NCBI GenBank assembly: GCA_001512965.1
Contig: LFRW01000043.1
Coordinates: 23,287-87,286 of the forward strand
Length of the DNA: 64,000 bases
From: Methanomicrobia archaeon DTU008
GTDB taxonomy: Archaea; Thermoplasmatota; Thermoplasmata; Methanomassiliicoccales; Methanomassiliicoccaceae
Direction of reading: 5' to 3'
Positions 13,398-61,474 of the stretch are shown one piece after another. Under the pieces are notes generated by a model, which was given only the letters and a program-made list of their open reading frames with translations, was not told the DNA's origin and searched no databases. Each line of letters opens with the position of its first letter. Position 1 is the first letter of the stretch. A program made the translations under genes and the position numbers.

Positions 13398-13460
13398 ATT
13401 TCTACCTCCTTTTTCATCTTCCTTCAATCGCCCGGAGTTCCCCCCGCGCGATTAAGACGT

Positions 13461-13480: not shown

Positions 13481-13566
13481 CATCAGGTCGGTTTTTTTCC
13501 TCACTGATGAAAATCGAATCCCCTTGCGTTGGCTTGTAAGTATAGAGATGCATATAAGACTAGTGA

Positions 13567-13585
13567 TGGATGGATTAACCATCCA
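13567..13585. promoter_or_regulatory. perfect 19-nt palindrome TGGATGG-ATTAA-CCATCCA upstream of the mcr operon
   Basis: Read directly. About 170 nt upstream of the mcrB start and about 70 nt downstream of the tfuA stop. On the minus strand it is preceded by TTTATCTT. Same half-sites and spacing as 6174-6190. Confidence 0.6.
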
Positions 13586-13655
13586 AGATAAACAATCGTG
13601 ATTTTTTGAAGGGAGCCAGTCATTTTTTGAAAAACTTAACGGCAGTTAATTTTTC

Positions 13656-14288: not shown

Positions 14289-14293
14289 CGGCT

Positions 14294-15496
14294 TCAGCGG
14301 AAACCACCCATCAGGCGTGCGCCGACGCGATCCTCGTCGATGGCGAATACTTCCATCCCAGGCACGATCACGCGAACCACTGGAATGCCCAGCTCCTTCC
14401 GGGTGAGGTCCACGACCACGGTGCGGTTCATTCCCTGCGCATTGATCTTGGCTCTGACTATCTGCAGGTCATCGAAGATATCGTCCGTCCCCATGCGGGG
14501 GAGATCGTCAAGGGAGCGCTTGTTTCCCGAGGGGGTGAGCCACATCTTGTTTATCCTCTTCATTCGCTCATAGCCCAACTTCCGGTTGCCTATCGCATAC
14601 ACGGCATCCTCCCTTGCACCATGGATCTGCGTGAGACGGCTCTGGGCCACCTCCAGCAACGCCTTGGTGGCGGCCACCTCGGGATCGAGATGGGTGCCGA
14701 TGCCCAGGTTCAGAAGTGCGGGGTCCTGCATTATGGTGTCATCGACGGCTGCGGCGATGGTCGGGATCCCTATCTCGGTCGTCAGGTCCTTGAGGTGCAC
14801 ATCGATGCCATTGCTCGTGAATCGCTCGACCAGTTCCTTCACCGGCCCGGACGACGGCACCTCTATGTCGCCGGTTATCCTGCGCCTTCCCTCCGCGAAG
14901 GACCAATCATTGCGCTCCACCACCTCATATAGGCCGTGCAACACCGCCTCCTCCACATTGTTGCCGCTGGCCAGACCGTTCGTCGACGTTCTGAAGAGAG
15001 GGAAATCCATCTTGGACACATATGGATGGAACACAGCACTGGCCGGCACCCAGGTCTCCTCATTGCCGTTCAGCTCCCATCCCTTCACCCATGCCACGGA
15101 CTGGCGCATGACGTAGAACGCCGCATGCTGCGAGAGGATCAGGTCCATCGGGTGAACGGCGACGTGGGAGGCCATGAACTCCTCGACGCCCTGCCTGATG
15201 ATGAAGTCGTCCCGGACCTCCGCGCTATACCTCTCCAGGGCCTCCATGATGGCGGAGACCTTCGCCTCCTCCTTGGTCAGCCCCTTCCCATTGTACACCG
15301 AGATGGCGCCGCTCTTGGCGGTAGGGCGGATGGCCGAGAAGACCGGAATTCCCACACGGTCGAGATCCGTGATGTCCGCAACCCTGGTCACACCCGCAAC
15401 GCCCATCAGGGGCTCAATCCTGGCAAGGGTCTCGGCAGGCTCGACCGATCGATGCCCGTCAGAGGTGAATTTCTTGGGAGTGCTTCCGAGCTTCAT
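14294..15496 (-). CDS. ycaO: YcaO-family ATP-dependent cyclodehydratase/thioamidase
   Basis: YcaO blocks: GIPVFSAIRP, SVYNGKGLTKEEAKVSAIMEALERYS, TNGLASGNNVEEAVLHGLYEVVERN. Homology starts at MKLGSTPKK (ATG 15496). The 100-codon track extension to 15799 is S/R-rich and overlaps the divergent gene. Confidence 0.88.
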   Translation of the reverse strand: MKLGSTPKKFTSDGHRSVEPAETLARIEPLMGVAGVTRVADITDLDRVGIPVFSAIRPTAKSGAISVYNGKGLTKEEAKVSAIMEALERYSAEVRDDFIIRQGVEEFMASHVAVHPMDLILSQHAAFYVMRQSVAWVKGWELNGNEETWVPASAVFHPYVSKMDFPLFRTSTNGLASGNNVEEAVLHGLYEVVERNDWSFAEGRRRITGDIEVPSSGPVKELVERFTSNGIDVHLKDLTTEIGIPTIAAAVDDTIMQDPALLNLGIGTHLDPEVAATKALLEVAQSRLTQIHGAREDAVYAIGNRKLGYERMKRINKMWLTPSGNKRSLDDLPRMGTDDIFDDLQIVRAKINAQGMNRTVVVDLTRKELGIPVVRVIVPGMEVFAIDEDRVGARLMGGFR

Positions 15497-15557
15497 GCCC
15501 TCGCCATAATCTCCTCCCCTATTAAATCTCACGAAGCGGACATATACCTGGGATACA

Positions 15558-16409
15558 TTGACGGGACGGTTTTCGCTGATGAGAACAAGTGAGATCATGG
15601 GCATGAGCGCCAGGTTCATCGAACCGTCCTTCGATGCGCTGGTCGACGAGTCGTTCACCGGGATAATCCTCACCCTGCCCGCCCAGGAGGCTCGATTGGT
15701 CGTAGACGAGGAAGACTGGCCCCTTGCGTTGGCGGTGCGCGACGGCGAGGCGTGGAATGCCGCTTCGTTCCTGCTTCGCCCCCCGATCATCGAGGTCATC
15801 GAGAGGTTCGAAGAACTGGGGGGAGATGTCGTTCATACCACCCAGGACGAGTTCATGCTGGCAATGCGGGAGTACTACTCGCTCCATATCCTCAACAATA
15901 CACTGATGGCCATGGAGGACCTGTCCCCGGACCGTACAGCCAAGGTCGAGGAGCTCATAGCTTCGGTATGGAAGGGCCGACGAGGAGAGGAGTGCATGGA
16001 CTGCGGGTGCGGCTCGGGCATGGGGTCCCTCGCCCTCAGGAACCAAGGCATCATCCCTCTGGCCTTCGACAATGACGCTGGCCTCATTGCTCGCGGCCTG
16101 CACGAGGGTCGCCTGATCCCCGAAAGGACCATGTGCATCGATGCCACCTTGCTATCCCATTATGCTAGACAGGTGCCTCTTGGGCTCGCTCTGATGGCTG
16201 GTTCCATAATCGATCAGACCGCCATGATGTGGAGAGCCATCCTGGAAGAGCTGTTCTCCATGACCAGGGAGACGTTGATAACCGTGGAGACGGAGAAGGA
16301 GGCGAACATGGTTCGGACGTGGGCCCTGGAAAATGAGAAGAACGTGGAGATGTTCGAGAACGAGCGTGACCCCTTCTACGATCGCTGGGTTTGCCTGGTG
16401 AAGGATTGA
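15558..16409 (+). CDS. class I SAM-dependent methyltransferase with unrecognised N-terminal domain
   Basis: Motif I ECMDCGCGSGMGSLAL, acidic post-I residue in PLAFDNDAGLI, and later strands CIDATLL and GLALMAGSI. About 130 aa of N-terminal sequence has no motif I recognise. Start may be 15597 or 15603. Divergent from ycaO across about 60 bp. Confidence 0.65.
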   Translation: MTGRFSLMRTSEIMGMSARFIEPSFDALVDESFTGIILTLPAQEARLVVDEEDWPLALAVRDGEAWNAASFLLRPPIIEVIERFEELGGDVVHTTQDEFMLAMREYYSLHILNNTLMAMEDLSPDRTAKVEELIASVWKGRRGEECMDCGCGSGMGSLALRNQGIIPLAFDNDAGLIARGLHEGRLIPERTMCIDATLLSHYARQVPLGLALMAGSIIDQTAMMWRAILEELFSMTRETLITVETEKEANMVRTWALENEKNVEMFENERDPFYDRWVCLVKD

Positions 16410-16883
16410 TCAGCGCAGGTTCCCCATCTTCTTCTGGTAGAGGTCCAGTTCAGCGTTGGGGTTGATAGTCACGCTGTCTATGATGATGTCGACCTCGACA
16501 TTGTTGATGTTAGGTATCTTGAGTATGTGCGTCTGAATCAGTTCATAGAGGGAATCGACGCTAGTGGTGTAGATGTTCAAGACCAGGCTGTGGTCGCCGA
16601 ACGTCCTCATCACCGACTCCACTTCTGGATACTTCTTCAGCTCCTCCACCACATTGTTGACGGCGGTGCCAGTGACCTGCAGGCCGACCAGTGCCTTCAT
16701 CAACCCAAGCTTGGCCGGGTTGGTCTCCATAGAATAGCCAGAGATTATTCCTTCCTCCTCCATCTTGGAGAGTCGGCGAGATACCGTTGCCTTTGATATG
16801 TTAAGCTCCTCAGATATTTTGCCGAGACTGTCCCGGGAATTTTCCCGTAGGCATTTCAAGATAGAGATGTCGGTTGGGTCCAT
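16410..16883 (-). CDS. Lrp/AsnC family transcriptional regulator
   Basis: 157 aa: the HTH is DISILKCLRENSRDSLGKISEELNISKATVSRRLSKMEEEGII, followed by a RAM/ACT-like C-terminal domain. Confidence 0.85.
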   Translation of the reverse strand: MDPTDISILKCLRENSRDSLGKISEELNISKATVSRRLSKMEEEGIISGYSMETNPAKLGLMKALVGLQVTGTAVNNVVEELKKYPEVESVMRTFGDHSLVLNIYTTSVDSLYELIQTHILKIPNINNVEVDIIIDSVTINPNAELDLYQKKMGNLR

Positions 16884-17102
16884 TCGTCACCTTTGCAACA
16901 TTGTTCCATTTCCAGCAGATTGTCGGCTCATAATTGGGACAATGTTTCAGAGAAATACCATTTTATGTATTAATCGTTGTCGAATTTTGGTATTGTGGGA
17001 ACGTTGGGATCGATGAAGGGCATCGAAGGAATGGATGCGGGGGCGCATAGGACGGAATAGAAATAAAATAGAATGGATAAAGGGGGTTTATGAGAGTCCA
17101 GC

Positions 17103-18743
17103 TCAAGCGCGCTGGGTGACCTTGAGGTCGCCGAATCGGTACACCTTTTGAGGGCAGACCGACTCGCAGTGCTTGCAGGCCGTTCCAAGGCAGTGCTCGG
17201 TGGCGATCCTGATGGTGAAGTCGTGGGGGCCGCCCTCGAGCACCTGCAGCGCCCTCTCCGGACACTCCTCTTCGCACATCTTGCAGCCAATGCAGCCCTC
17301 GAAGCCGCCAGTGAGGTATACGCCGACATTGTCGAGGATGTGCAGCCCATGGTCGCCTATCACGGGGATGTCGGATACCACCAGACGCTTCATCTCCTTG
17401 GGGCGGACTATCGGCGGCAGAGGCTGGAGGCCGTTGCTCTTGAGCACCTCGTTATACATCTCCTCAGGCATCCCTTCCGCCCAGAACGCGATCTCGTTGA
17501 CATACATGTCCTCGAAGATCTTGCTGGTGGCGAACATGATGTGCTTCGACGCGATGGAGTCGGCGACCTTCTGCATCTCGTCGAGAGCAGAGTCGTCCCT
17601 GACTAGATCATATGCCATCATAAGCGAAGTGTTTCCCACCTGGACCGTGGCGTCTATGACCCGAGGCACCATCCCCACCCTCTGCGCCTTGAGCGGATCG
17701 ACATATGTGCCAGAGGCTCCCGCCAGGTACATGGTCTTGACATCGTTGTCCTTGATACCGACCTCTTCGATGAGCGTGCGGTGGCCTGCCCGTATGGCGC
17801 CCATGGCCTTTCCGGCCTCCGCCAGGTCGGTCTCGGAGAAGGTTATGCCATCCTGGAAGTGCAGTAGATGGTCGGGCGTCCTGATGCCCGGCAGCGAGAT
17901 GAGACCGGATTCGAGACCCACCGCCACTGCCGCAACTACTCCGGTGCCTGTGATGCCGCGTGCCCTGATGTCTGCCATCCGCTTCGACGTCCCGTTCGCC
18001 GGGTCGGTCAGGCTGCCCACAACGGGATGCAGGTTTGGATCCAGCACGACGTTTTTCCAGAGATCGTCCTCGCCGATGTTGAGGTCGGATATGGCGAACG
18101 GGGCTGCGAGCATCCCATGGTCGATGGCCTGCCCCTCCATGGCGGGACCCGCCGCGGCGGAGCCGCTATACAGCTCCCCGTCATGGAACAGCCCCATCTC
18201 GGCGTTCGTGCCATAATCGGTGACTATGCAGGTCTCCTTCTTTTCCAGTAGGCCGGACTTCATGATCATGGCCAGGGCGTCCGCCCCGATCTCATGTCGG
18301 ATCGCGGGAGGTATGACCACTTCAACCTCGGACCTCACAGATGTAAGGCCGAGATCGCCGGCCGTCGTCACGTGACCACGGCGCTCAGGAATCTTCACCT
18401 GGAGGCGTTTCAACAGCGACTGTCCGGCATATGCCAGGTCCCTGATCTCGATGTTCTCGAACATCGACACCTGGGCGGGATTGCCGCAGACCGCTATACG
18501 CTCGATCTCCTTGAGCGGTACGCCGTGAAGCTCTATGAGACGGCTCACGGTGTTCATTATGATGCTGTGACCCACCTCTGCCCCGTTCTCCAGCCAGAAA
18601 TGCAGATGGTCCATGATGTTTGCCCCTGGAAGGGGGTGTCTCATGGTGATCGCCGTCGAGACTATCTTGCCGTTTTTTGACAGGTCCACAAGGTGGGTCC
18701 TATAGCCACTTGTTCCTACGTCGAGTGCAACACCGTAGCCCAT
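17103..18743 (-). CDS. ramA: corrinoid protein reductive activase RamA (ASKHA ATPase + 2x[4Fe-4S] ferredoxin domain)
   Basis: 546 aa: ALDVGTSGYR, TDYGTNAEM and AGPAMEGQ (ASKHA fold). The C-terminus carries CIGCKMCEEECP and CLGTACKHCESVCP. Confidence 0.85.
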   Translation of the reverse strand: MGYGVALDVGTSGYRTHLVDLSKNGKIVSTAITMRHPLPGANIMDHLHFWLENGAEVGHSIIMNTVSRLIELHGVPLKEIERIAVCGNPAQVSMFENIEIRDLAYAGQSLLKRLQVKIPERRGHVTTAGDLGLTSVRSEVEVVIPPAIRHEIGADALAMIMKSGLLEKKETCIVTDYGTNAEMGLFHDGELYSGSAAAGPAMEGQAIDHGMLAAPFAISDLNIGEDDLWKNVVLDPNLHPVVGSLTDPANGTSKRMADIRARGITGTGVVAAVAVGLESGLISLPGIRTPDHLLHFQDGITFSETDLAEAGKAMGAIRAGHRTLIEEVGIKDNDVKTMYLAGASGTYVDPLKAQRVGMVPRVIDATVQVGNTSLMMAYDLVRDDSALDEMQKVADSIASKHIMFATSKIFEDMYVNEIAFWAEGMPEEMYNEVLKSNGLQPLPPIVRPKEMKRLVVSDIPVIGDHGLHILDNVGVYLTGGFEGCIGCKMCEEECPERALQVLEGGPHDFTIRIATEHCLGTACKHCESVCPQKVYRFGDLKVTQRA

Positions 18744-19155
18744 TGGTCTCTCCGGCCAGAAATCAGAACGGAGCTATAAAAAGAATAACACGAACAAGCC
18801 AGATGGCATAATGGACATTTCGTTGCGATCGGTCGATCGAACATCGGGGTTCTCTCGGCAGCATCGCGACCACATCGAGGTCATCACTTCGGCGGTCCAG
18901 GCGCTTACATGCCCGTTCCGGATCACTGCCATACCATCATCATCGCGGAACCGAGGAAAATCTGGATAACACCATGCGCCTAGCAAGTTGAGTTCCCCCA
19001 TGAGGATGGAGAGTTACGGCATAGTTCGACCATGCATCGCTTCCATTTGCCGCTATATATACGTAGCGTCTCGTCAAGAATCCAATGCGGCGAACAAATG
19101 ACGAGCTGACTCGCAACAGTGAAATGAAAATAAGAAAGGAATAAGGGGTTTCGGA

Positions 19156-19172
19156 AAACTGCAAGGCAGTTT
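19156..19172 (-). terminator. hairpin AAACTGC-N3-GCAGTTT overlapping the MT2 stop codon, followed by T-rich tract
   Basis: 7-bp perfect stem read directly. The minus-strand transcript continues TTTTCCGAAACCCCTTATTCCTTTCTTATTTTCATTTC. Confidence 0.4.
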
Positions 19173-20169
19173 ATCCCTTGATGGCCTTGACCATCGCCTC
19201 GATGTTCGCCTTGGGAACACGAGCGGCGAGACCGCAGCCAGGAGCGACGACGTTGAAGCCGGCGTTCTTGATGTCCAGGGCGTGCTCGCGGCACTCCTCG
19301 GGAGTTCCCTGAAGCAGCGGGCGGACGACACCCATGTTACCGACAAGGGCGGCGCGGCCAGCGACGAGCTCGACGGCCCTGTGGGGGTTTACCTTCTCCT
19401 CGATCGAGAGCGCATCTGCACCAGTGTCGATCATGTGGTCCAGGAGAATGGTGGTGTCTCCGCAGATGTGCAGGATCTTGAGAGCGCCCTCGGCACCCTC
19501 CCACGCGGTCTTGGTGTACGGCTTGGCGAACTCGTCGAACATCTCACCGGACAGCATGTCGGTGGAGGCGGAGGGGTCGCTCATGGCGATGACGTCAGCA
19601 CCAGCGGCGACAAGGGCCTGCAGGTACTTCTTCTCCATCTCAGCGGCCACCTTGATGAACTTGTGAACGGCATCGGGATCGGTGATCATCATGAGCAACA
19701 GGTTCTCGGTGCCGACCAGGTGGCCAGCGATGGTCAGGGGACCGGTGGTGCCCACGACGATCGGGAGCTCGTCGCCATACTGCTGCTTCAGCAGCTTGGT
19801 GGCCTCGATGACCGTCTTGACCCTGCCCTTCTCAAGGAAGTCCTCGGGGTAGACGGGGGTGTCCTCAGCGGTGTAGATGTGCTTCTTAACCATGGGGGTG
19901 CGGTCTACCTTGCCCAGGTCCACGAGGCAGCCAAAGGCCTCAGCCTCGACGGTCAGGCAGAACGGGATCCTGGCGTTCTCGAATCCAAAGACCTTGTAGC
20001 CAGCAGCTCCGAGCTCAGCCATCTGCTTGGCGTCGGTGTGTGCCTCGGGCCAGAAAGCACCAACAGCTTCCATCTGGTCAACGGTTACGGATTGGGTGAC
20101 GCATCCGACTGCGGGCCTGTCCAGCTCCTCACGCTTAAGTGCTGCAATGAACCTCTCTTTCGGGGTCGT
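19171..20169 (-). CDS. methylcobamide:coenzyme M methyltransferase (MT2, MtaA/MtbA family), apparent ACG initiation
   Basis: UroD-like MT2: the track ORF starts at ATG 20073 (MEAVGAFWPEAH...), yet the 32 in-frame codons upstream encode TTPKERFIAALKREELDRPAVGCVTQSVTVDQ, the conserved family N-terminus. The frame is closed by TAA at 20182-20184. The only candidate start is ACG 20167-20169, 6 nt after GGAGGT (20176-20181). Confidence 0.8.
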   Translation of the reverse strand, partial: TTPKERFIAALKREELDRPAVGCVTQSVTVDQMEAVGAFWPEAHTDAKQMAELGAAGYKVFGFENARIPFCLTVEAEAFGCLVDLGKVDRTPMVKKHIYTAEDTPVYPEDFLEKGRVKTVIEATKLLKQQYGDELPIVVGTTGPLTIAGHLVGTENLLLMMITDPDAVHKFIKVAAEMEKKYLQALVAAGADVIAMSDPSASTDMLSGEMFDEFAKPYTKTAWEGAEGALKILHICGDTTILLDHMIDTGADALSIEEKVNPHRAVELVAGRAALVGNMGVVRPLLQGTPEECREHALDIKNAGFNVVAPGCGLAARVPKANIEAMVKAIKG

Positions 20170-20214
20170 AGAATTACCTCCTTATCCAAAAGATTTAGTT
20201 GGCAATTGGAATAA

Positions 20215-20222
20215 CTATATAA
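20215..20222 (-). promoter_or_regulatory. TATA box TTATATAG for the MT2 gene
   Basis: Lies 46 nt upstream of the ACG at 20169. The predicted transcript start is near 20190, leaving about 20 nt of leader with the SD. Confidence 0.4.
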
Positions 20223-20393
20223 TTAGTTTTCGTCAATTTTGGTGAACAATCGTTGGTATCGGGAACAGTCTGGCTCATGTTCATGTTCGCTTTCAAAATG
20301 CGAGCGATATGTATCTTTTCATGGATGTAAGGAGGTCAAGGACATCACCCCCTTGAGTACATCTGGGAGAAGCGATATGATGGCCTTGAAGCA

Positions 20394-21341
20394 TCATTGC
20401 TCCGGCAACCGGCCGCCCCGGAAGTCGATATCGCTCCATGGGTCCTTCGAGGCCTTTTCCCATACGTTTCGTATGTTGAAGCTCCGTGGACCCAGGTCAG
20501 GATCGTCCAGTTCCTCCCACCGCAAGGGCGCTGCCACCGGAGCGCCGTCCCTTGCCCTGACAGCATACGGGGCCACCCCGGTCTGGGCATAGGCGTTGCG
20601 GAACACGTCCACAAGCAGACGGCCTTCCCTCTCCGTAACAGAGCGTTCCATCGTCAGCCTGTCATCCATCTGGACCATCTCATCCGCTATGCCCATGGCA
20701 TAGGACCTGACGGCATCGAAGTCAGCGGTGCGATCGAGCGGTACCACGACATGCATTCCTCTGGACCCCGTCGTCATGACGAAACCTTTCAGCCCATCGT
20801 CGGAAAGGAGCTCCCGCGCCAGAAGGGCGGCCTCCTTCACCACCTCGAAGTCATCATCGCCAGGGTCGAGATCGAGAATCATGCGATCCGGACATTCCGG
20901 ACGGTCCACGCGGCTCAACCATACGTGAGGGGTGATGCAGTCGAGGTTGGCTAGATAGACGAGGTCCGCGGTCTTCTCACACACCATGTGCCTCACATAT
21001 CCGCCCTGCTTGGGCATGTTCTCGGTTCGTAACCAGGAAGGCGCCCCTCGGGGTACGTTCTTCTGTATGAAGCCAGGGGCATCGATGCCATTTGGATGCC
21101 GTACCATAGACACCGGCCTCTCCTTGATGAATGGAAGCATGAACGGAGCTATGCGCCTGTAATAATCGACCAGGTCTGCCTTGGTATACCCATTGCGAGG
21201 AAACAATGGACGATCAGGGTTCGTGATATCGATCTCTATGATCCCAGGGGATCCTTCGACCTCGATATCGATACCGCATGAACTTGCATCCTCCCTCGGA
21301 TCATGCATTCGCCAGACCATGGGAGGACGATGGGTGCCCAT
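20394..21341 (-). CDS. stand-alone LigD-type polymerase/primase domain (NHEJ PolDom, AEP superfamily)
   Basis: 315 aa: ITNPDRPLFPRNGYTKADLVDYY, ERPVSMVRHPNG, ILDLDPGDD, FVMTTGSRGMHVVVPL, LVDVFRNAYAQTGVAPYAVRAR. No ligase, Ku or phosphoesterase domain is attached. Confidence 0.8.
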   Translation of the reverse strand: MGTHRPPMVWRMHDPREDASSCGIDIEVEGSPGIIEIDITNPDRPLFPRNGYTKADLVDYYRRIAPFMLPFIKERPVSMVRHPNGIDAPGFIQKNVPRGAPSWLRTENMPKQGGYVRHMVCEKTADLVYLANLDCITPHVWLSRVDRPECPDRMILDLDPGDDDFEVVKEAALLARELLSDDGLKGFVMTTGSRGMHVVVPLDRTADFDAVRSYAMGIADEMVQMDDRLTMERSVTEREGRLLVDVFRNAYAQTGVAPYAVRARDGAPVAAPLRWEELDDPDLGPRSFNIRNVWEKASKDPWSDIDFRGGRLPEQ

Positions 21342-21406
21342 AGCTTCTATAATCTATCACTCGCTCGGCTGCGACGATAGGAATCGATCGGAAAAGTAGG
21401 TTGAAA

Positions 21407-21425
21407 GGAGGGACGTGGTCCCTCC
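21407..21425 (-). terminator. GC-rich hairpin GGAGGGAC-GTG-GTCCCTCC downstream of the corrinoid gene
   Basis: Perfect 8-bp stem, 20 nt after the stop at 21445. Followed on the minus strand by TTTCAACCTACTTTTCC. Confidence 0.5.
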
Positions 21426-21444
21426 GTGGTTTGTGTGGTTATGT

Positions 21445-22083
21445 TTACTTCAGAAGGTTCTGGACGACCTGGACGGCCTCGACAGCGTCGTAAGCCCATC
21501 CATCGGCACCGATCTGAGCGGCGAACTCCTTGGAGGTAGCACCGCCACCGATGATGGTCTTCATCTTGCCCTTCAGGTTCTCCTCGGCGAGCATGCGCTC
21601 GATCTCCTTCATGGCCGCCAGGGTGGGGGTCATGAGGGTAGAGGCAGCAACAACCTGGGCCTCCTCGGCCTTAGCCTTCTCAACAATGTTCTTCACGGGC
21701 ACATCGCGGCCGAGGTCGAAGATGGTGAGTCCAGCTCCGGTCAGCATGGCCTTGACGATGTTCTTTCCGATGTCGTGCACGTCACCCTCGACGACAGCGA
21801 GGACGATCTTACCAGGAACGGCGTTTGCATCAACGACGAGCTTAGGCAAGGCAACGTCAAGAGACTGGTACATGGTCTGAGCGGACAGAAGGACCTGGGG
21901 CAGGAAGTACTGCTTGTTCTCGTACTTCTCGCCTACGACAGCCATGGCCTTGCTGAGGCTATCAAAGATGATGGTCTTAGCGTCGATGCCAGCAGCGAGT
22001 GCTTCCTCGGTGAGAGGTTTGGCCTCCTTGATCTTTCCCCTAATAACAACATCTGCTAGCTTTTCGAGTATCTCATTGCTCAT
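21445..22083 (-). CDS. methyltransferase-cognate corrinoid protein (MtaC/MtbC/MttC family), no adjacent MT1 gene
   Basis: 212 aa: EEALAAGIDA, FLPQVLLSAQTM, EGDVHDIGKNIVKAML (DxHxxG), VVAASTLMTPTL, IGGGA. Confidence 0.85.
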   Translation of the reverse strand: MSNEILEKLADVVIRGKIKEAKPLTEEALAAGIDAKTIIFDSLSKAMAVVGEKYENKQYFLPQVLLSAQTMYQSLDVALPKLVVDANAVPGKIVLAVVEGDVHDIGKNIVKAMLTGAGLTIFDLGRDVPVKNIVEKAKAEEAQVVAASTLMTPTLAAMKEIERMLAEENLKGKMKTIIGGGATSKEFAAQIGADGWAYDAVEAVQVVQNLLK

Positions 22084-55325: not shown

Positions 55326-57266
55326 TTACATGCCCAGCGCCTGGCGTTTCTGCTCGATGTGGTCGAAGAGGATCGCACACGCCTTCCGCGGGTCCGGCTC
55401 CACCCAGAACTTGGCATTGATCAGGTGCTCGATGTCGTCGGTGAGCAGCTTGGTGACATATGGGCTCCCGCCGATGCGCGGCATCACTCCCAGCAGCGTG
55501 CTGACGCCCGTGCCGACGAAGTACTCGGCGATCGAGACCGCCTTGGGAGAGTACCACTCGGGCGCGGCGCCGGCGACAGGGAGCTGATCGATCCGCACTC
55601 CCGCCAGATTGGCCAGCTCTGCCACCAGGTTCAGTATCCTGGTGTTGTCGACGCATGACCCCATATGCAGCACCGGAGGTATGCCGAGCGACCCGCACAC
55701 TTCCTTCAGCCCCTTTCCCGCTTGATCGATCGCGGAGGGCAGCAGGAGGCCGGCCTTGCCGGACGCGATGGATGCGCATCCCGTCTCCACCACCAGGATG
55801 TCCCTCTTTATCAAGGCCTTTGCCAAGGCCACATGCCCCTGGTCGTGGCGTATGTGGGGATTGTTGCATCCTACGATGCCCACCGCCCCTCTGATCTTCC
55901 CTTCCACGATGACGTCCAGCAATGGCTTCAGGCTCCCCCCGAGCGCCTTCTTGATGGCCTCGACCGAGAAGCCTACCATCGCCTCCATCGGGTCATCGGG
56001 GATCTGTACCTTCTCCGGGATGCGGTTGGGATAGTTGTCGATGGCCATCTCGAGCATGCGCTTGGACTGCTGATAGGCGTTCTCCGGGGTGACCTCGATA
56101 TACTCGGCCCCGGACATGGTGGCCTTGGGAGAGGTGGAGAACACCTTGGTGTGATAGCAGGCCGCGGTGAACGGCAGGGATGGGAATATGCACTGATAGT
56201 CGACTATCATCGCCTCCAGCGCCCCGGTTATTATGGTGAGCTCCTGGTCAAGGTGATTGCCGGCCTGTGGAACTCCCTTTCTCATGAGCAGTTCGTTCCC
56301 GGTGCAGCACAACCCCACCAGGTTCACGCCGGCCGCGCCCACCTTCTTGGCCCTGGCCACGATGTCATGGTCCGCCGCCGCTCTGACGATCATCTCGGAG
56401 AGGACAGGGTTATGTCCATGCAGCGCCACGTTCACATGGTCCTTCTTCAGGACGCCGAGGTTGACCCGCGAGGTCTTGATCTCCGGCGTGCCGAACAGCA
56501 CATCGGATATCTCCATCGCTTGCATCGAGCCTCCCCAGCCGTCCGACATGGAGGTCCGGAAGCCATGCATGACCACGCCGAAGGGATCGTTCCCGACCCC
56601 CATATGGATCCGGTGCATCGCCTCGACCACCTCGCGGTCGATGCCGCGAGGCAGGATGTCGGCCTTCCTCATCACCTCCAGGCTGGCGGCCGGTACGCGC
56701 TTGATCATCTGAAGCTCGCCGCGCGTGGTGCCGAACTCGTCAAGCATGGCGAGGGCAAGTCTCTCCGCGATCTGCTGGGTCGTTCCTTCGGTATCGATCC
56801 CATACTCCTTCGCCAGATCGTTCAGCTTTTCGACATCGGTCACCGTATATTCCGGCGCACTGCCTGTTACGCCCTTCAGCAGCGCCTCCACCACATCCCT
56901 TCCATGGTCGGAGTGCGCGGCCGCCCCCATGGCGACCCAGTCGAGCAGATTCCTGGCCACGATGAGGTTGGCGTCGTTGCCGCACACCCCCCTGGTGCGG
57001 TCTCCGCCCATGATGCGGCAGGGGCCCATGGCGCAGCGCTGGCAGGAGACGCCTTCCGAGCAGAACTTGCAATGAGGGGTCTGCCTCTCCAGGCGATCCC
57101 ATACGGTGTCGGTGCCCTCCTCCATGGCCTTTCGAAGCACCATCTGCGAGGTGCGGTCCAGCGTTCTCTCCTCGACCTTCTGGTCCATCTCCTCCGGGGT
57201 GAGAGCTTGCTTGGCAGGCCTCCTCAAACACTCCACAGACAAGATCTCGGGATAATCGTCCGCCAT
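55326..57266 (-). CDS. cooS: anaerobic Ni-dependent carbon monoxide dehydrogenase catalytic subunit
   Basis: 646 aa: N-terminal cluster cysteines HCKFCSEGVSCQRCAMGPCRI and GVCG, then AAAHSDHGRD, LHGHNP, VGLCCTGNELLMR, GCNNP, MGSCVDN. Confidence 0.9.
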   Translation of the reverse strand: MADDYPEILSVECLRRPAKQALTPEEMDQKVEERTLDRTSQMVLRKAMEEGTDTVWDRLERQTPHCKFCSEGVSCQRCAMGPCRIMGGDRTRGVCGNDANLIVARNLLDWVAMGAAAHSDHGRDVVEALLKGVTGSAPEYTVTDVEKLNDLAKEYGIDTEGTTQQIAERLALAMLDEFGTTRGELQMIKRVPAASLEVMRKADILPRGIDREVVEAMHRIHMGVGNDPFGVVMHGFRTSMSDGWGGSMQAMEISDVLFGTPEIKTSRVNLGVLKKDHVNVALHGHNPVLSEMIVRAAADHDIVARAKKVGAAGVNLVGLCCTGNELLMRKGVPQAGNHLDQELTIITGALEAMIVDYQCIFPSLPFTAACYHTKVFSTSPKATMSGAEYIEVTPENAYQQSKRMLEMAIDNYPNRIPEKVQIPDDPMEAMVGFSVEAIKKALGGSLKPLLDVIVEGKIRGAVGIVGCNNPHIRHDQGHVALAKALIKRDILVVETGCASIASGKAGLLLPSAIDQAGKGLKEVCGSLGIPPVLHMGSCVDNTRILNLVAELANLAGVRIDQLPVAGAAPEWYSPKAVSIAEYFVGTGVSTLLGVMPRIGGSPYVTKLLTDDIEHLINAKFWVEPDPRKACAILFDHIEQKRQALGM

Positions 57267-57317
57267 GGGCGAACATACCTAGGACAACTCATATAATAAT
57301 AGCAGTGAGATGCTTCA

Positions 57318-58121
57318 TCATTCCCGTCCTTTGATCACAGCGCCGTAGATCCTCTCCTTCAGAGCCGATATGGCCTGCTCTCCGACCGAAGAGAGCCCGA
57401 CCGGCCTGCCGGCCAGGTCCGCCGCCACCAGACCTCCATCATGACGGATGACGGCCGCAACCTGGAGACCTTCCTTCTCGACGAGGGAGCGAAGCTCTTG
57501 CTGCTGGGCATCGTCGTGAACCTTGTTCAGGACGGCCAGCACGCTGCCGACGCCCAGTGAGCTGGCCATGTCGGCTATCCTGACCGCCGTTTCCACCGAG
57601 CGTCGGCCCGGTTCGACTATGACCAGCAGCACATCGACATCACGCACGGTAGAACGGCCCAGATGCTCCAGGCCCGCCTCCATGTCCAGTATCACCACGT
57701 GTTCCCTGTCCAGCACAAGGTGGTTCATGAGGTTCTTCAGCAGAGCGCTCTCCGGGCAGAAGCATCCCGATCCCGGGGCCTTTATCGTACCCAGGACCAT
57801 CACCTTGACGCCTTCCATCCCCTGGACCGCGAACCTGTCCACGAGATCGTCCACCTTGGGGTTCAGTGAGAACATGCCGCCATAGCCCTCCCCCGGCCTG
57901 ACGCCCGTCCGCTCCTCTATGAGGTCCAGCATATCGGACAGCGGCGTTATGCCGTTGCGCACCTCCTCCGGCACCCCCAGCGCCACTGGCAACGAGGACG
58001 CTGGATCGGCGTCCACCGCCACCACGTCCATACCCTCTCTGGCATACTGCAGTGCAAGCGATGCGGCGACCGTGGTCTTGCCCACGCCGCCCTTGCCGGA
58101 TACGGCGATCTTGATGGCCAT
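57318..58121 (-). CDS. cooC: CODH nickel-insertion accessory ATPase CooC
   Basis: VSGKGGVGKTT P-loop, the metal-binding CxC in GSGCFCPE, and MinD/ParA-fold length. Confidence 0.88.
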   Translation of the reverse strand: MAIKIAVSGKGGVGKTTVAASLALQYAREGMDVVAVDADPASSLPVALGVPEEVRNGITPLSDMLDLIEERTGVRPGEGYGGMFSLNPKVDDLVDRFAVQGMEGVKVMVLGTIKAPGSGCFCPESALLKNLMNHLVLDREHVVILDMEAGLEHLGRSTVRDVDVLLVIVEPGRRSVETAVRIADMASSLGVGSVLAVLNKVHDDAQQQELRSLVEKEGLQVAAVIRHDGGLVAADLAGRPVGLSSVGEQAISALKERIYGAVIKGRE

Positions 58122-58313
58122 TCAGAACCTCTCCAGAATGATGCGATGTCGCAGCAGGTCTATCTCCGAGATCCTGGCACTATCAACGGTCGTCTCTCGG
58201 CCGATGATGTCCACACATCTGATCTTGTCTCCCTCGACGCGCACCGAGATGGCTTCAGGCATGACCGTGGTTATTCCTGTCTCCGACTTCATGAGAACGG
58301 TCGACTCGCACAT
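58122..58313 (-). CDS. cooT: CooT-like small nickel-binding protein
   Basis: 63 aa starting MC (Cys2). The beta-rich pattern VLMK..G....EAISVRVEGDKIRCVDIIGRE....ARISEIDLLRHRIILE resembles Rhodospirillum CooT. Abuts the cooC start. Confidence 0.7.
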   Translation of the reverse strand: MCESTVLMKSETGITTVMPEAISVRVEGDKIRCVDIIGRETTVDSARISEIDLLRHRIILERF

Positions 58314-58402
58314 CGTATCTTATGAAAAACACACACTTATTTCAATACGGGGGCAGGAGGAAGTTGATTTACACGCAAAAATGGTAGCAGCTAAGGGAAT
58401 GG

Positions 58403-58810
58403 TCACTTCATTCTGTTGGATGGCTTCGCATCGAAGTATGTGCGACCTAGCGGCGTGAGGACATAGATCCGCCACCTTTTCTGGGGTACAGACCTTATCA
58501 ATCCTGCCTGCTCTAGAACATTGAGATGATATGACAATCTGGAATCGGATAGACCTGTGATCTCGGTCAAAACGCAAGGGCATAGGTCGCATACGGACAG
58601 TGTATGTACGATCTGAAGTCGAATAGGCTCAGCAAGTGCTTGGAAGATCCTGGCTTCACCCTCAAGCTCTTGCCTATCGGGCACAGCGGAACGTATCGCA
58701 TCCAGGCCACCTCGCTCCCGTAACGTTTCCTCTACCTCATCAGGGAGATCCCTGAAATCGGAGCAATCCTGCTCACGAGATCGCTTAGCGATATCGTTCC
58801 CTTCGTTCAT
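58403..58810 (-). CDS. arsR: ArsR/SmtB family metal(loid)-sensing repressor
   Basis: IFQALAEPIRLQIVHTLSVCDLCPCVLTEITGLSDSRLSYHLNVLEQAGLI (Cys-x2-Cys-x-Cys in the alpha3 position). Preferred start is MNEGND (58810), 30 nt after the AATTATAATT box (58836-58845). The track ORF opens at 58855. Confidence 0.8.
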   Translation of the reverse strand: MNEGNDIAKRSREQDCSDFRDLPDEVEETLRERGGLDAIRSAVPDRQELEGEARIFQALAEPIRLQIVHTLSVCDLCPCVLTEITGLSDSRLSYHLNVLEQAGLIRSVPQKRWRIYVLTPLGRTYFDAKPSNRMK

Positions 58811-59100
58811 CTTGCATAAGCAAAGTGATGGAGGCCAATTATAATTTCCCTCCACTCAACCAACATCCTTTACTCATCCGATCGACAGAACGTCGTTGGA
58901 GGCTTTTGAGACATCGGGTTCGGGCACGACACCATGGTTTCGATATGGTGTCATGGGACCGAAGTGATTCTCATAGCCATACCTAAGTATCAGCACCTGA
59001 TCGTTGGTCTTGCTAGCCTTACAGGTCGATCGCGAATCGACGCAGTAAGCGCTCATGCGCCAAAATAACAATGGGTAGGTATCATTTTATATGAGCTTTT

Positions 59101-59124
59101 TCATTTCAAGAATATTTGAAATCA
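59101..59124. promoter_or_regulatory. imperfect 12-0-12 palindrome TCATTTCAAGAA/TATTTGAAATCA (core ATTTCAA-N6-TTGAAAT) between TATA (TTTTATAT 59085-59092) and the acr3 start
   Basis: Read directly. It overlaps the expected transcription start of acr3, a typical position for an ArsR/SmtB operator. Confidence 0.5.
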
Positions 59125-59138
59125 TAACAGAGCAAAGC

Positions 59139-60269
59139 ATGAGCGAAATTGCTGGAGAATACTGCCCGCCGTCAGGGTCGGAGACTAAGAGACTATCATT
59201 CTTGAATCGCTACCTGACCATATGGATATTCTCCGCTATGGGGATCGGCATCGCCCTGGGAGCGTTCTTACCAGGTGTTGCTGACGTCATCAATTCTTTC
59301 AGCGTCGGCACTACGTCGATACCTATCGCCATCGGCCTCATCCTAATGATGTATCCACCATTGGCCAAGGTACGGTATGAGGAACTACGGAAGTTGACCG
59401 TGATGCCTGGGTCTAAGGCCATGTTCACGACATCACTCGCCTTGAACTATGTGGTCGGACCGTTGCTCATGTTCGTGCTAGCTTGGATCTTCCTTCCTGA
59501 CCTGCCAGAGTATCGCATAGGCCTGATCCTTACCGGTGTGGCAAGATGCATCGCCATGGTTCTGGTGTGGAACCAGCTGGCGGATGGTGATAGTGGATAT
59601 GCCGCCGTACTTGTCGCGTTGAACTCGCTCTTCCAGATAGCACTATACTCGTTCTACGCTTACTTCCTCATCGCCGTGCTGTCTGACGTCGTCTCGCCAG
59701 GCTCGGGTGTGGTGGTGAACATTTCCGTAGCATCGGTCGCAGCGAGCGTTCTTTTCTACCTGGGCATTCCGTTCCTTGCCGGGATCGTCACGCGGTATAC
59801 GCTCTTACCGCGAAAGGGGGCCGATTGGTATGATAATCATTTCATGCCTAGGCTTTCCAAGCTATCGCTTCTAGCACTGCTCTTCACCATCGTCGTCATG
59901 TTTTCCCTGCAAGGAGGGAACATCCTGAGGCTCCCGGTGGACGTCGTTCGCATCGCAATACCCTTACTGGCCTATTTCCTGATCATGTTCCTTCTGTCAT
60001 TTGGGGTATCGATATGGCTGAAACTCGATTACCCGCATGCCGCGGCACAGTCCTTCACCGCCGCGAGCAACAACTTCGAGTTGGCGATCGCCATCGCCGT
60101 CGGTGTGTTCGGCATAGGTTCAGGTGTTGCCCTGGCCGCGGTCATCGGCCCCCTGGTAGAGGTGCCCGTGCTCATATCATTAGTCAATCTGGCGCTGTAC
60201 TTCAAGAGGAAGTATTACAACGCTGACGGTTCGATAATCGATGGCATAGCGAAGGCTGAACGGCAATGA
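59139..60269 (+). CDS. acr3: arsenite efflux permease, ACR3 family
   Basis: RLSFLNRYLTIWIF, IPIAIGLILMMYPPLAKV, ARCIAMVLVWN, and about 10 TMs. Start taken at MSEIAGEY. Confidence 0.88.
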   Translation: MSEIAGEYCPPSGSETKRLSFLNRYLTIWIFSAMGIGIALGAFLPGVADVINSFSVGTTSIPIAIGLILMMYPPLAKVRYEELRKLTVMPGSKAMFTTSLALNYVVGPLLMFVLAWIFLPDLPEYRIGLILTGVARCIAMVLVWNQLADGDSGYAAVLVALNSLFQIALYSFYAYFLIAVLSDVVSPGSGVVVNISVASVAASVLFYLGIPFLAGIVTRYTLLPRKGADWYDNHFMPRLSKLSLLALLFTIVVMFSLQGGNILRLPVDVVRIAIPLLAYFLIMFLLSFGVSIWLKLDYPHAAAQSFTAASNNFELAIAIAVGVFGIGSGVALAAVIGPLVEVPVLISLVNLALYFKRKYYNADGSIIDGIAKAERQ

Positions 60270-60302: not shown

Positions 60303-60941
60303 ATGGGGGATATCATGACGATCGAGGAGATCGACCTGTATCGACTGGAGGCAAAGGACATAAAGAAATATTTGCCAGAAGGTGAGAGGACCGCCTGCGG
60401 TGCTGGTGATTGGGACGAGTTCGCGCAGATGCTGCTAGATGGTGAGGCGAGAGCGCGTGAATGCGAGGTAATGGACCCACGCCTGGCGTTAGCGATGGAC
60501 GCCGTGCTATCTCTGGACATCCACCTTCCTGAAAGCGATCCGATGCAACAGAAGGTTCCCGAGAAGCTCATTGAGTTCAATTCCCCGGACGAGAGCTCTC
60601 CGGTATTGCTCACTGGCAATTCCATCGTCACTCATCGCATATTGAGGATGATCTTCGACGCCGCTCGCGTGCCTGCATTTCTTATCGTCGTCGACACCAA
60701 CGGTCTAACGACCGACAACGCCGTAGCGGCAGGAGCGTTCACCCCGATGGCGGTCATGAAGGCCATGACCGAAAGCGGCATATCGACCCGTTCAAGATCG
60801 CGAAGGATCATCATCCCCGGTCTGGCTAGAGACCTGAAGAGCAGTATCGAGCGCGTCACGCGCTGGTCGGTAGAGGTCGGCCCGGTCAGCGGCTTCGAGC
60901 TCCCGCTATACCTATTGAAGAGAGAAACGTCTGAAAGGTGA
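60303..60941 (+). CDS. miniature CFeSP/HgcA-like corrinoid-binding-domain protein with degenerate N-terminal Fe-S module
   Basis: Residues 98-205 align with the corrinoid-binding domain shared by the CFeSP large subunit (AcsC/CdhE C-terminus) and HgcA. SPVLLTGNSIVTHRILR, AFLIVVDTNGLTTDNAVAAGAFT, RRIIIPGLA and VEVGPVSGFELPLYL correspond to PVLVTANYKLSFD, AWLLVLDTRGINVWCAAGKGTF, RRLVLPQLA and VLWGPVRAADLPAYL. Residues 24-56 resemble the AcsC N-terminal 4Fe-4S motif but keep only 2 of 4 Cys. No TIM barrel and no TM domain. Confidence 0.65.
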   Translation: MGDIMTIEEIDLYRLEAKDIKKYLPEGERTACGAGDWDEFAQMLLDGEARARECEVMDPRLALAMDAVLSLDIHLPESDPMQQKVPEKLIEFNSPDESSPVLLTGNSIVTHRILRMIFDAARVPAFLIVVDTNGLTTDNAVAAGAFTPMAVMKAMTESGISTRSRSRRIIIPGLARDLKSSIERVTRWSVEVGPVSGFELPLYLLKRETSER

Positions 60942-60944
60942 GCG

Positions 60945-61244
60945 ATGGGTACGGAAGGGCACACCGCGGTCATGTATCGAGCTAGGCCGCCAGCCTGGCT
61001 GAAGGGTGAAGTGACGAGGCATTGCGCCCGATGCGAGGGCCGAGTGGACTGGATGCAGATCGTCTGCCCCAACTGCGGCGCTCAGCTGCTCAAAGAATGC
61101 CCACGGTGCCATTGCCATGTGGCAATGGACACCACGTTCTGCACCATTTGCCGATACAGCTTCCCGTTGCCACCTCCTCCCAAGGCTACTGTCTGCATGT
61201 GGCATAGTCATATCGTTCCATCTGGACAATATGAAGGGCTATGA
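60945..61244 (+). CDS. double zinc-ribbon protein
   Basis: 99 aa with four CxxC knuckles (CARC, CPNC, CPRC, CTIC). Starts 3 nt after the upstream stop. Confidence 0.55.
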   Translation: MGTEGHTAVMYRARPPAWLKGEVTRHCARCEGRVDWMQIVCPNCGAQLLKECPRCHCHVAMDTTFCTICRYSFPLPPPPKATVCMWHSHIVPSGQYEGL

Positions 61245-61474
61245 CCCGATACTACTTGGGTCGATTATCGAAGCGTTCTCGCACTGACCGTTCATTGACA
61301 CGGGGTTGAGCGCGAGGGACATTGTGAAATGAACTAGATGCATCTTGCACAGACCCAGGACCATGGCGCGAGCGTTCATAGAAAAACATACGCTTCGAAG
61401 ATGTCGTGGAAGCGAGTCGTGTCACCCTCGCACATCCTCGAAGGTCGATACATAAGCGATGATCCGTTTCGATA

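Follow-up and report, generated by a model that had tools for sequence, protein, structure and literature searches.

What is a corrinoid-type protein doing in an arsenic resistance operon? The question is raised by a stretch of 64,000 nucleotides from Methanomicrobia archaeon DTU008, a member of the Methanomassiliicoccales (contig LFRW01000043.1, positions 23,287 to 87,286 of the forward strand). We refer to this whole stretch as the window and give all coordinates in it. Just downstream of the arsenite efflux gene acr3 lies an open reading frame (ORF) for a mini corrinoid iron-sulfur protein (mini-CFeSP, the mini protein below), followed by an ORF for a small zinc-ribbon protein. A first-pass annotation made from the letters alone had offered two readings: a corrinoid-dependent module for the methyl transfer or handling of metalloids under ArsR control, or the relic of a Wood-Ljungdahl/acs cluster. 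It also suggested profile searches, a structure prediction and a survey of homologues next to acr3/arsR. We confirmed the layout that it described: the mini ORF starts at 60303, 33 nt past the acr3 stop at 60269, the four-CxxC ORF begins 3 nt past the mini ORF, arsR is divergent from acr3, and cooS and cooC lie beyond arsR on the minus strand. The ars linkage and the corrinoid-related partners described below make the first reading the best-supported hypothesis; the chemistry that it would involve, direction included, is an inference.

Profile searches against the CdhD/CFeSP and HgcA models gave significant matches. Pfam CdhD (PF03599) aligned through profile positions 266-378 of 387 with residues 83-195 (E-value of 1e-19), and its score of 71 bits exceeded the gathering cut-off of 24.8, with only the C-terminal third of the profile covered. 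The NCBIfam matches were CdhE gamma (5e-31, confined to profile positions 322-446 of 450; 108 bits versus an equivalog cut-off of 306), HgcAB_like (1e-18) and HgcA (1.7e-11; 43.9 bits versus a cut-off of 275), while PDB sequence matches fell on CFeSP large-subunit residues ~306-433 (7e-17). An AlphaFold2 (AF2) model built with 31 homologues was confident (predicted local distance difference test, pLDDT, 90; predicted template modelling score, pTM, 0.86). Its Foldseek matches in the PDB were limited to CFeSP large subunits (E-values 4.5e-10 to 5.4e-8) and the HgcAB model 9a0b (5e-6), the next match lying above 0.1, and it superposed on 2h9a with a root-mean-square deviation of 2.0 Å across 131 columns. 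CFeSP residues ~60-305 were skipped in the HMM and PDB alignments, and the mini protein has 212 aa versus 440-450 aa. Neither a TIM barrel nor a membrane domain was seen in it by Pfam/NCBIfam, PDB alignment or model, and it ends five residues beyond its B12 domain. These results agree with the annotation that only the two terminal modules of CFeSP are present, and confirm the predicted protein as a CFeSP large subunit minus the TIM barrel, with an Fe-S domain and a B12 domain. That the second of these is the Rossmann-type corrinoid domain known from HgcA was borne out by the PF03599, HgcAB_like and 9a0b matches.

The B12 domain carries a T104-x-N106-x3-T110 motif, a DTNG loop and a cap helix, and in the model its conserved motifs sit at the C-terminal ends of the beta strands. 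By alignment, T104, N106 and T110 correspond to CFeSP T339, N341 and T345. In an alignment of 31 sequences the invariant or near-invariant positions were P95, P100, T104, N106 (in wider sets), T110, G134, D138, N139 and the C-terminal GPxSGxELP, within which G193, P194, S196, E199 and P201 are invariant. HgcA, too, conserves the polar residues through which CFeSP contacts B12; Thr60 and Thr66, six residues apart, and the cap-helix residue Cys93 have been listed for it (Cooper et al., PMC7305189). The T104/N106/T110 set of the mini protein corresponds to this Thr60/Thr66 pair. The cap helix of the mini protein, TNGLTTDNAVAAGAFT, spans residues 132-147 (60696-60743). Asn139 aligns with CFeSP Thr374, which is the position of HgcA Cys93, under the cobalt, so the annotation of a third cap variant (TTDNAVAAG) holds. 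Across the wider family of ~200-aa proteins this position is occupied by Asn, Met (in a large 'VDMA' group), His, Cys or Ser, a range that fits a ligand-facing site. The conserved contact residues, together with corrinoid-specific partners, suggest that the mini protein binds a cobamide.

The N-terminal domain is more degenerate. Its 75 residues were weakly recognised when the single sequence was used (PF04060, E-value of 0.16), and the family profile matched the CFeSP N-terminal [4Fe-4S] domain with per-domain E-values of 4e-4 to 6e-3, as well as RnfB. Relatives have a CxxCGxxxC...C motif; because only Cys32 and Cys54 of the four ligands remain in the window protein, it is unlikely to hold a cubane cluster. 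An AcsC-like Fe-S motif with two of four cysteines had been annotated here, correctly except for its span, which is 60363-60464 and not 60372-60470. In the archaeal ars-linked clade described below, one to three of the four cluster cysteines are gone.

By score and identity the mini family is closer to CdhE than to HgcA. The CFeSP large subunit (AcsC/CdhE gamma; 2H9A, 2YCL, 4DJD, 4C1N) is the best match: both of its terminal domains are homologous to the mini protein, the T-x-N-x3-T motif, DTxG loop and cap helix are common to the two B12 domains, and both families are linked to an ATP-dependent reductive activase of the RACo/RamA type. Unlike the mini protein, CFeSP has a central TIM barrel of ~250 residues, all four cluster cysteines and Thr374 in place of Asn at the cap. 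It also has an AcsD/CdhD small subunit and acetyl-CoA synthase (ACS) and methyltransferase (MeTr) neighbours instead of an ars operon context; we found no acsD/cdhD, acsB or acsE neighbours in the window flanks or the related loci. HgcA shares with the mini protein the PF03599 B12-domain family, a cobalt-facing cap residue and a small Cys-rich downstream partner gene, but has an N(V/I)WC(A/S) motif (as defined in PMC10083202) and a five-helix membrane domain, both of which the mini protein lacks. Scoring below the CdhE and HgcA cut-offs and differing from both proteins in architecture, the mini protein appears to be a compact fourth branch of PF03599, of which a published phylogeny recognises only HgcA, CdhD and CdhE (PMC10083202).

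HgcA and the mini family also have in common a recurrent association with arsR, acr3 and arsC, and both hint at methyl exchange with a soft metal or metalloid. The hgcAB genes are flanked by acr3, arsC, arsM and arsR in many genomes (PMC7438021) and are arsenic-responsive via an ArsR-like regulator (bioRxiv 10.1101/2022.10.17.512643), so the arsenic link of this fold may be general. The likeness between the mini loci and the hgcAB-ars adjacency bears on the debate over the original function of HgcA.

We next determined how widespread the mini proteins are. A word-indexed search found at least 114 clusters of ~204-aa homologues, almost all from Methanomassiliicoccales, and an exhaustive profile search added ~40 further 50%-identity clusters of ~200-aa proteins besides full-length CFeSPs. 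Scans of GTDB genomes and JGI metagenomes yielded 64 loci (given below by their L numbers where needed), 62 of which carry the mini gene; these were sorted by tblastn with the window neighbours and by Pfam annotation of clustered neighbours. The closest named relatives of the window are metagenome-assembled genomes (MAGs) of Methanomassiliicoccales. We delineate here a DN-type mini-CFeSP of ~200-215 aa, with an Fe-S-type N-terminal domain, a B12 domain and the motifs EEIDLY, DTxGxTxDN and GPxSGxELP, into which the window protein fits. The mini gene is under purifying selection: the ratio of nonsynonymous to synonymous substitution rates (dN/dS) was 0.09-0.13 between the window and relatives at 77-83% identity.

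The linkage to arsenic resistance genes is strong and recurs in an archaeal and an actinobacterial clade. The survey found acr3 directly upstream of the mini gene on the same strand in 38 of the 62 loci, 31 archaeal and seven from Thermoleophilia/Gaiellales-type Actinomycetota, with a gap of 3-260 nt or one small gene between the two. The usual order in the 31 archaeal loci is arsR and an arsC of the low-molecular-weight protein tyrosine phosphatase (LMW-PTP) type divergent from acr3, an AhpD-like gene, the mini gene, the zinc-ribbon gene and DUF1638; arsD, arsA, thioredoxin and an ArsP-family methylarsenite permease are often nearby. The seven actinobacterial loci have the order arsR-arsD-arsA-acr3-mini, and their mini proteins keep all four Fe-S cysteines intact. 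Four of these seven encode an extra ~265-aa protein between acr3 and the mini gene (L029:9124-9921, L030:9139-9932, L058:834-1622, L060:5349-6143); its last 50 residues form a CFeSP/RnfB-type four-Cys Fe-S domain, and its first 200 residues had no Pfam, NCBIfam or PDB match. The identity of mini proteins falls to 52% within the archaeal clade and is ~40% between the two clades. A conserved B12-type gene in the ars operons of two domains of life is surprising.

A second archaeal context links the family to methanol metabolism. Paralogues in 16 loci (L022-L027, L032, L047, L049-L055, L062; e.g., L027:2298-5694) follow the order cobW, a gene for a 142-aa protein without an assigned function, ramA and mini, convergent with mtaB and mtaC, and most of them keep the Fe-S cysteines. 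Judged by this gene order, the ramA-linked mini protein appears to be an unrecognised extra member of the activation cluster for the methanol methyltransferase of Methanomassiliicoccales. In addition, a bacterial member (L066:3769-7722; P0112 contig; 39-40% identical) is encoded by the first gene of a mini-mtaA(URO-D)-mtaC-mtaB operon under a sigma-54 activator, with cobW and ramA a few kb downstream. L020 and L021 form a third small group with neither acr3 nor ramA, in which DUF1638 lies 1.7 kb away in L020.

A neighbour-joining (NJ) tree of the B12 domain (128 columns, 500 bootstraps) recovered the actinobacterial ars-linked clade with 100% support, the archaeal ars-linked clade with 66% and all archaeal members together with 73%. 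The window protein grouped with the archaeal ars-linked clade, and the mini proteins were separate from full-length CFeSPs. The archaeal ars-linked group clustered with the archaeal ramA-linked paralogues, and the two ars-linked clades were sisters in none of the 500 replicates. Since support was modest with 128 columns, we use only this non-sister statement from the tree; it implies that the ars linkage was either gained twice or kept across a very long divergence. A much larger sister family in Desulfobacterota (e.g., P0118, P0120, P0122, P0129; L068-L070) comprises at least 485 clusters of ~210-aa mini-CFeSPs with Met at the cap (DTxGxTVDMA), rare His, Cys or Ser variants and a GPxCAAELPLF C-terminus. 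The contexts of its Met-type members were stand-alone or housekeeping (response regulator, NTP-transferase, His_Phos_1) and gave no functional lead.

To which partners is the mini protein tied? Among the archaeal loci linked to ars genes, ~29 have the zinc-ribbon gene 3' of the mini gene, whereas none of the ramA-linked loci does. The four CxxC pairs that had been annotated in its product are real and are kept in ~29 orthologues, and Pfam DZR came within reach of its cut-off (E-value of 4.9e-6; 27.1 bits, just under 27.3). Its dN/dS in the same comparison was 0.16-0.23. A homologue search found only four close relatives, and the AF2 model from a three-sequence alignment was of low confidence (pLDDT 48). 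The first-pass annotation had likened this gene to hgcB; the downstream position is indeed the same, but there is no homology, HgcB being a 2[4Fe-4S] ferredoxin and the mini partner a putative double zinc ribbon.

An AhpD/CMD-like protein of 70-79 aa with a CQPCFRHH motif is encoded between acr3 and the mini gene in ~22 archaeal loci, and this CxxC protein matched the AhpD part of NCBIfam NF041537, an ArsM fusion. An intact DUF1638 gene (Pfam 3.8e-29) comes after the zinc-ribbon gene in L001, L002, L010, L013, L017, L019, L035 and L042-44, with the copies compared at L019:5056-5727 and L035:6977-7558; it is a single unbroken tblastn match in L048 and is split by a frameshift in L034 and its sister contigs L072/L073. 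DUF1638 shows cofitness with split MetH and shares its distribution with B12 reactivases resembling RamA, and a role in cobalamin 'recharging' has been proposed (bioRxiv 10.1101/192971, PMC12478193). In the split methionine synthases DUF1638 comes right after a stand-alone B12-domain protein, the same order as in the mini relatives, and relies on a RamA-like activase. That system, however, acts on the MetH-type B12 domains of Proteobacteria; in the mini loci DUF1638 goes with a CFeSP-type domain in an ars operon and, in the window, is only a remnant. Considering these ties of DUF1638, RamA and the AhpD-like protein, the recurrent partners of the mini gene fall without exception into two kinds, ars genes and genes for corrinoid handling. 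The surrounding cluster changes while the pair of mini and zinc-ribbon genes persists, and with the AhpD-like gene gone and only a trace of DUF1638 left, the module in the window genome is a stripped-down one.

Two side observations concern this pair. A widespread sister species (L072:8340-9965, L073; at least 24 contigs) has lost arsR and acr3 and kept the mini gene, the zinc-ribbon gene and a split DUF1638; its locus sits between cooT and DUF2117, with shared flanks that hold polysaccharide synthase, cooS-cooC-cooT, DUF2117, M50 protease and Zip genes. One MAG (MFD02138.bin.2.15; L015 and L017) has two mini copies in different contexts, one as acr3-mini without a zinc ribbon, the other with zinc ribbon and DUF1638 behind chemotaxis (PAS/HAMP/MCP) genes and without acr3.

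How might such a module work? It is quite possible, although we hold it as less than an even chance, that the mini protein forms a cobamide module under ArsR control and transfers methyl groups from cobalt to trivalent arsenic or the other way round, a direction that we leave unfixed. A CFeSP-derived protein with its TIM barrel removed would have been recruited into an ars operon and co-transcribed with acr3 from an ArsR-controlled promoter. It would hold a cobamide base-off, with Asn139 of the cap helix below the cobalt, and together with the zinc ribbon would pass the methyl group between cobalt and arsenic; in relatives the small AhpD-like CxxC protein and DUF1638 would belong to the module as well. 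Inactive Co(II) could be returned to Co(I) by the host RamA, helped by DUF1638 where this is still present. In methanogens, corrinoid proteins are reductively activated by RamA at the expense of ATP, and since ramA and a gene for an MT2 methyltransferase are found in the window, the host has both an activase and an MT2 that a methylated mini protein could use. The self-contained actinobacterial versions, with four Fe-S cysteines and, in four of seven loci, a second CFeSP-type Fe-S protein, occur in non-methanogen hosts and point to arsenic as the target, not to methanogenic enzymes.

Two directions can be envisaged. In the first, the methyl group would be taken off methylarsenicals, the arsenic would leave via Acr3 or ArsP, and the methyl group would enter methanogenesis via MT2. 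This fits the presence of Acr3 and ArsP as possible product exporters in the same clusters. ArsI, the C-As lyase, requires O2, which fits an anaerobic demethylation by another route. Methanomassiliicoccus luminyensis converts dimethylarsenite (DMAs(III)) to monomethylarsenite (MMAs(III)), a conversion to which the study assigned no genes (PMC10579292), and studies of arsenic demethylation use mcrA or mtaB as proxies (PMC10579292, PMC12478174, bioRxiv 10.64898/2026.08.27.747368). In the second, methyl-Co(III) would methylate As(III) in organisms without ArsM. The order lacks arsM (PMC7824343), which fits this direction, as does the AhpD-like protein, whose counterpart elsewhere is the reductant partner of ArsM in the NF041537 fusion. 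Methylcobalamin-dependent arsenic methylation by methanogens is classical and would also fit. To our knowledge a dedicated protein for it has been lacking since the 1970s, and the literature that we searched agreed with the first-pass annotation in naming no corrinoid protein dedicated to arsenic; it contained no description of the mini family or of a corrinoid protein in ars operons.

The known methyl enzymes of ars operons, ArsM (the S-adenosylmethionine (SAM)-dependent As(III) methyltransferase) and ArsI, are, like the mini protein, often encoded next to arsR and acr3, and ArsM is in some organisms fused to the kind of AhpD-like CxxC module that adjoins the mini gene. They have no homology to the mini protein, which would rely on a cobamide instead of SAM and, unlike the O2-requiring ArsI, could function under anoxic conditions. 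More tentatively, the mini-CFeSP with zinc ribbon, AhpD-like protein and DUF1638 might constitute the missing cobamide-dependent arsenic methyl-transfer system of anaerobes, independent of ArsM and ArsI. Such a system might, and here we are just as doubtful, demethylate DMAs(III)/MMAs(III) or methylate As(III) by Co(I)/CH3-Co(III) chemistry. The mini protein, a conserved component of ars operons in these very archaea and separately in soil Actinomycetota, is a concrete, clonable candidate for the enzyme still sought in anaerobic arsenic methylation and demethylation. Anaerobic demethylation by methylotrophic methanogens, Methanomassiliicoccus above all, sets arsenic speciation and straighthead disease in rice paddies and awaits a gene assignment. 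If the proposal is true, the mini proteins would add to the CFeSP/HgcA B12-domain family a functional branch, its fourth, and would be evidence that metal(loid) methyl transfer, besides acetyl-CoA synthesis, is an old trade of the fold.

Several observations weigh against methyl transfer to or from arsenic. No methyltransferase (MT1-like) gene was found in the conserved block, which thus offers no candidate catalyst for a Co-As exchange. In mta operons the family stands beside a complete MtaA/MtaB/MtaC set with RamA and CobW, and because MtaC is already present there, the mini protein looks like an accessory and not like the methyl carrier. The sister species retains the mini protein, zinc ribbon and DUF1638 after the loss of arsR and acr3, from which it follows that the pair works without the pump too. 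Most archaeal members have lost Fe-S ligands. The window itself has no AhpD-like gene and only a 44-aa trace of DUF1638. Finally, we know of no case in which Asn is a cobalt ligand.

The presence of MtaC in the mta operons leads to the main rival explanation, which we consider unlikely, if the most serious of the alternatives: that the mini protein is an arsenic-inducible maintenance factor for corrinoid enzymes that does not act on arsenic. It would be a stress-induced paralogue of an accessory to corrinoid methyltransferases, for instance a cobamide carrier, a chaperone or a reactivation partner of MtaC, MtmC and the like. Where arsenite oxidises or intercepts such proteins, it would maintain them as Co(I) forms with their cofactor in place, and the loss of the Fe-S cluster, for which one to three of the four ligands are gone in the archaeal ars-linked clade, would make the isoform insensitive to arsenite. 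The 16 loci in which paralogues directly follow ramA, with cobW and beside mtaB and mtaC, support this, and so does the bacterial mini-mtaA-mtaC-mtaB...cobW-ramA arrangement, which has a corrinoid protein of its own. COG0523 and ramM genes cluster with mta genes (PMC2770081), DUF1638 is tied to B12 reactivation, and the retention of the mini and zinc-ribbon genes without acr3 in the sister species is mildly favourable. Conversely, the non-methanogen Thermoleophilia carry the mini gene in ars operons with intact Fe-S ligands and, in four of seven cases, the extra Fe-S protein, and no Mta, RamA or DUF1638 was found in the ~1-10 kb flanks of these loci, where L031 has a cobW-like gene ~3 kb downstream. 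The reactivation of one B12-binding protein by another has no known mechanism, and the repeated placement right after acr3, and not beside methyltransferase genes, would be left unexplained.

MtaC and MtmC are themselves small stand-alone corrinoid proteins that need RamA-type reactivation, like the mini protein, and the paralogues are encoded together with them. Their B12 fold is unrelated, however (PF02310/PF02607, His-on, DxHxxG), whereas the mini protein has a CFeSP-type base-off, His-off domain; the host set includes RamA, MT2 and several MtaC/MtmC-type proteins. No cognate MT1 is known for the mini protein. Even if the mini protein proved to be an arsenic-induced helper of corrinoid enzymes, it would reveal a protection of B12-dependent metabolism from arsenite.

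We regard as improbable the explanation that the mini protein is a general methyl-corrinoid shuttle, for instance to the core methionine synthase MesB, and that it lies among ars genes for no mechanistic reason. It has been predicted that MesB and MesC receive their methyl groups from the B12 domain of CFeSP, and Methanomassiliicoccales possess MesB alone (bioRxiv 10.1101/2020.04.21.054031); in Phaeobacter, methionine synthesis requires DUF1638 and RamA-like genes, and mini and zinc-ribbon genes persist without acr3 in L072 and L017. However, acr3 upstream in 38 of 62 loci from two non-sister clades goes far beyond chance or hitch-hiking, the annotated flanks contain no mesB or metE-like gene, and the actinobacterial hosts need no such donor.

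Equally small is the chance that we give to a cofactor-less adaptor, in which the B12 fold would serve as a scaffold. The mini protein and the eight-Cys zinc ribbon would then jointly bind As(III) or thiols, either to regulate or to act as a metallochaperone that serves Acr3/ArsA. The degenerate Fe-S site, the unprecedented Asn at the cobalt-facing position and the ArsD-type chaperones in the same clusters fit this idea, and As(III) binds Cys triads, for which the zinc ribbon would supply four CxxC pairs. Yet no positions of the family are better conserved than the B12-contact residues (T104, N106 and T110, with the DTxG loop and cap helix), and just one Cys of the mini protein itself is invariant. 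Its partners DUF1638 and RamA are specific to corrinoids, and the residues found at the cap in different subfamilies (N, M, H, C or S) can all serve as ligands, the pattern of a cobalt-facing site.

The second of the original readings, a decaying CFeSP large-subunit fragment left by a Wood-Ljungdahl/acs cluster, can be dismissed as very improbable: cooS, cooC and cooT do lie 2 kb away, CdhE gamma is the best HMM and the Fe-S ligands are partly lost, but the low dN/dS shows that the mini gene is no relic, the model is confident and compact, the ~205-aa architecture recurs in more than 100 clusters, some with intact Fe-S motifs, and groups apart from full-length CFeSPs, acr3 is the recurrent neighbour and cooS adjoins in only a few loci, and no acsB, acsD or cdh genes are nearby.

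Table 1. Features of the mini-CFeSP locus and of the rest of the window
Feature	Position	Strand	Evidence or remark
Mini corrinoid protein (mini-CFeSP, DN-type)	60303-60941	+	212 aa (208 aa if start = 60315); HMM, PDB, model, Foldseek
N-terminal domain derived from CFeSP/RnfB-type [4Fe-4S] domain	60315-60527	+	Family profile matches CFeSP residues 5-57 and RnfB
Rossmann-type corrinoid-binding domain, residues 83-207	60549-60923	+	Pfam, NCBIfam, PDB, Foldseek
Asp138-Asn139, first turn of cap helix	60714-60719	+	Both invariant in 31 sequences; model helix 137-142
Putative double zinc-ribbon partner	60945-61244	+	99 aa; four CxxC pairs, PLPPPPKATVxMWH tail; Pfam DZR PF12773
DUF1638 gene remnant	61201-61329	+	tblastn with L019 DUF1638: 41% identity over 44 aa, E 1.3e-4
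acr3, arsenite efflux permease	59091-60269	+	TIGR00832 3.2e-125, 417.8 bits vs cut-off 282.8; Pfam SBF 1.4e-52
Candidate acr3 promoter/operator	59085-59121	+	TATA-like TTTTATAT (59085-59092), then perfect palindrome
arsR, ArsR/SmtB metalloregulator	58403-58855	-	Pfam HTH_5 2.3e-11; NCBIfam HTH_metalloreg 6.3e-19, 67.6 bits vs cut-off 55
mtmB	3134-4516	-	In-frame TAG at 3908-3910 (...DIAI*GPET...)
mtmC	4533-5273		Adjoins mtmB
mcrB	12078-13427
YcaO gene	14294-15799
ramA	17103-18743
URO-D-family MT2 methyltransferase	19171-20073
LigD-type primase-polymerase	20394-21341
MtaC-type corrinoid protein	21445-22083

The regulatory part of the locus offers indirect signs of arsenic control (Table 1). The arsR translation reads CDLCPC, which we take to occupy the place of the CVCDLC motif that classically binds As(III) (the R773 ArsR site), and the conserved motifs R-C-I-A-M-V and F-E-L-A-I-A are present in the acr3 translation. 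The acr3 start is probably at 59139, since the ATG at 59091 is part of the TATA-like box. About 18 nt before this ATG lies the palindrome TTTCAA-GAATAT-TTGAAA (TTTCAA-N6-TTGAAA; 59104-59121), at the expected site of transcription initiation. Little of the intergenic region is shared with the 77%-identical relative RumEn M1 (L001): only the palindrome and a ATAACAATGG..TAGG block are conserved, in a stretch just before acr3 that takes in the TATA-like box. The palindrome is a candidate ArsR operator, and acr3 and the mini gene may be co-transcribed under ArsR control. No T-run was seen in the intergenic gaps between the acr3, mini and zinc-ribbon genes; a scan for sigma-70 promoters and intrinsic terminators found nothing above shuffled controls, these being bacterial models that are not applicable to an archaeon.

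On the other side of arsR, 89 nt away and on the same strand, are cooT, cooC and cooS (55326-58855 with arsR, minus strand), a monofunctional cooS-cooC-cooT CO dehydrogenase set. Given this spacing and orientation, arsR could share a transcript with that set in the window and in RumEn M1. Most relatives carry the LMW-PTP-type arsC where the window has the coo genes. The G+C content is 0.46-0.55 across arsR, acr3 and the 5' end of the mini gene, 0.53-0.60 across the mini and zinc-ribbon genes and 0.59-0.64 in the flanks. The lower-G+C block described in the first-pass annotation therefore holds mainly for arsR and acr3.

Met5 (60315) is probably the true start of the mini protein, since its homologues begin with MTIEEIDLY. 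The mini and zinc-ribbon ORFs share one reading frame with only TGA GCG between them (60939-60947). We considered a readthrough fusion of the two and rejected it as unlikely because their spacing or overlap differs among relatives (in L001 the ORFs abut at 6502). A zinc-ribbon copy in L071:491-829 (P0383) is identical over its first 68 residues and then frameshifted; it is on a low-coverage contig and probably reflects an assembly error. An Rfam scan of the window returned one tRNA and nothing else.

Elsewhere in the window, mcrB, a pyrrolysine-type mtmB, mtmC, ramA and MT2 mark the host, on gene content, as a methyl-reducing methanogen. The region 12078-22083 combines mcrB and ramA with the YcaO, MT2, primase-polymerase and MtaC-type genes of Table 1, and the in-frame TAG of mtmB is the expected pyrrolysine codon.

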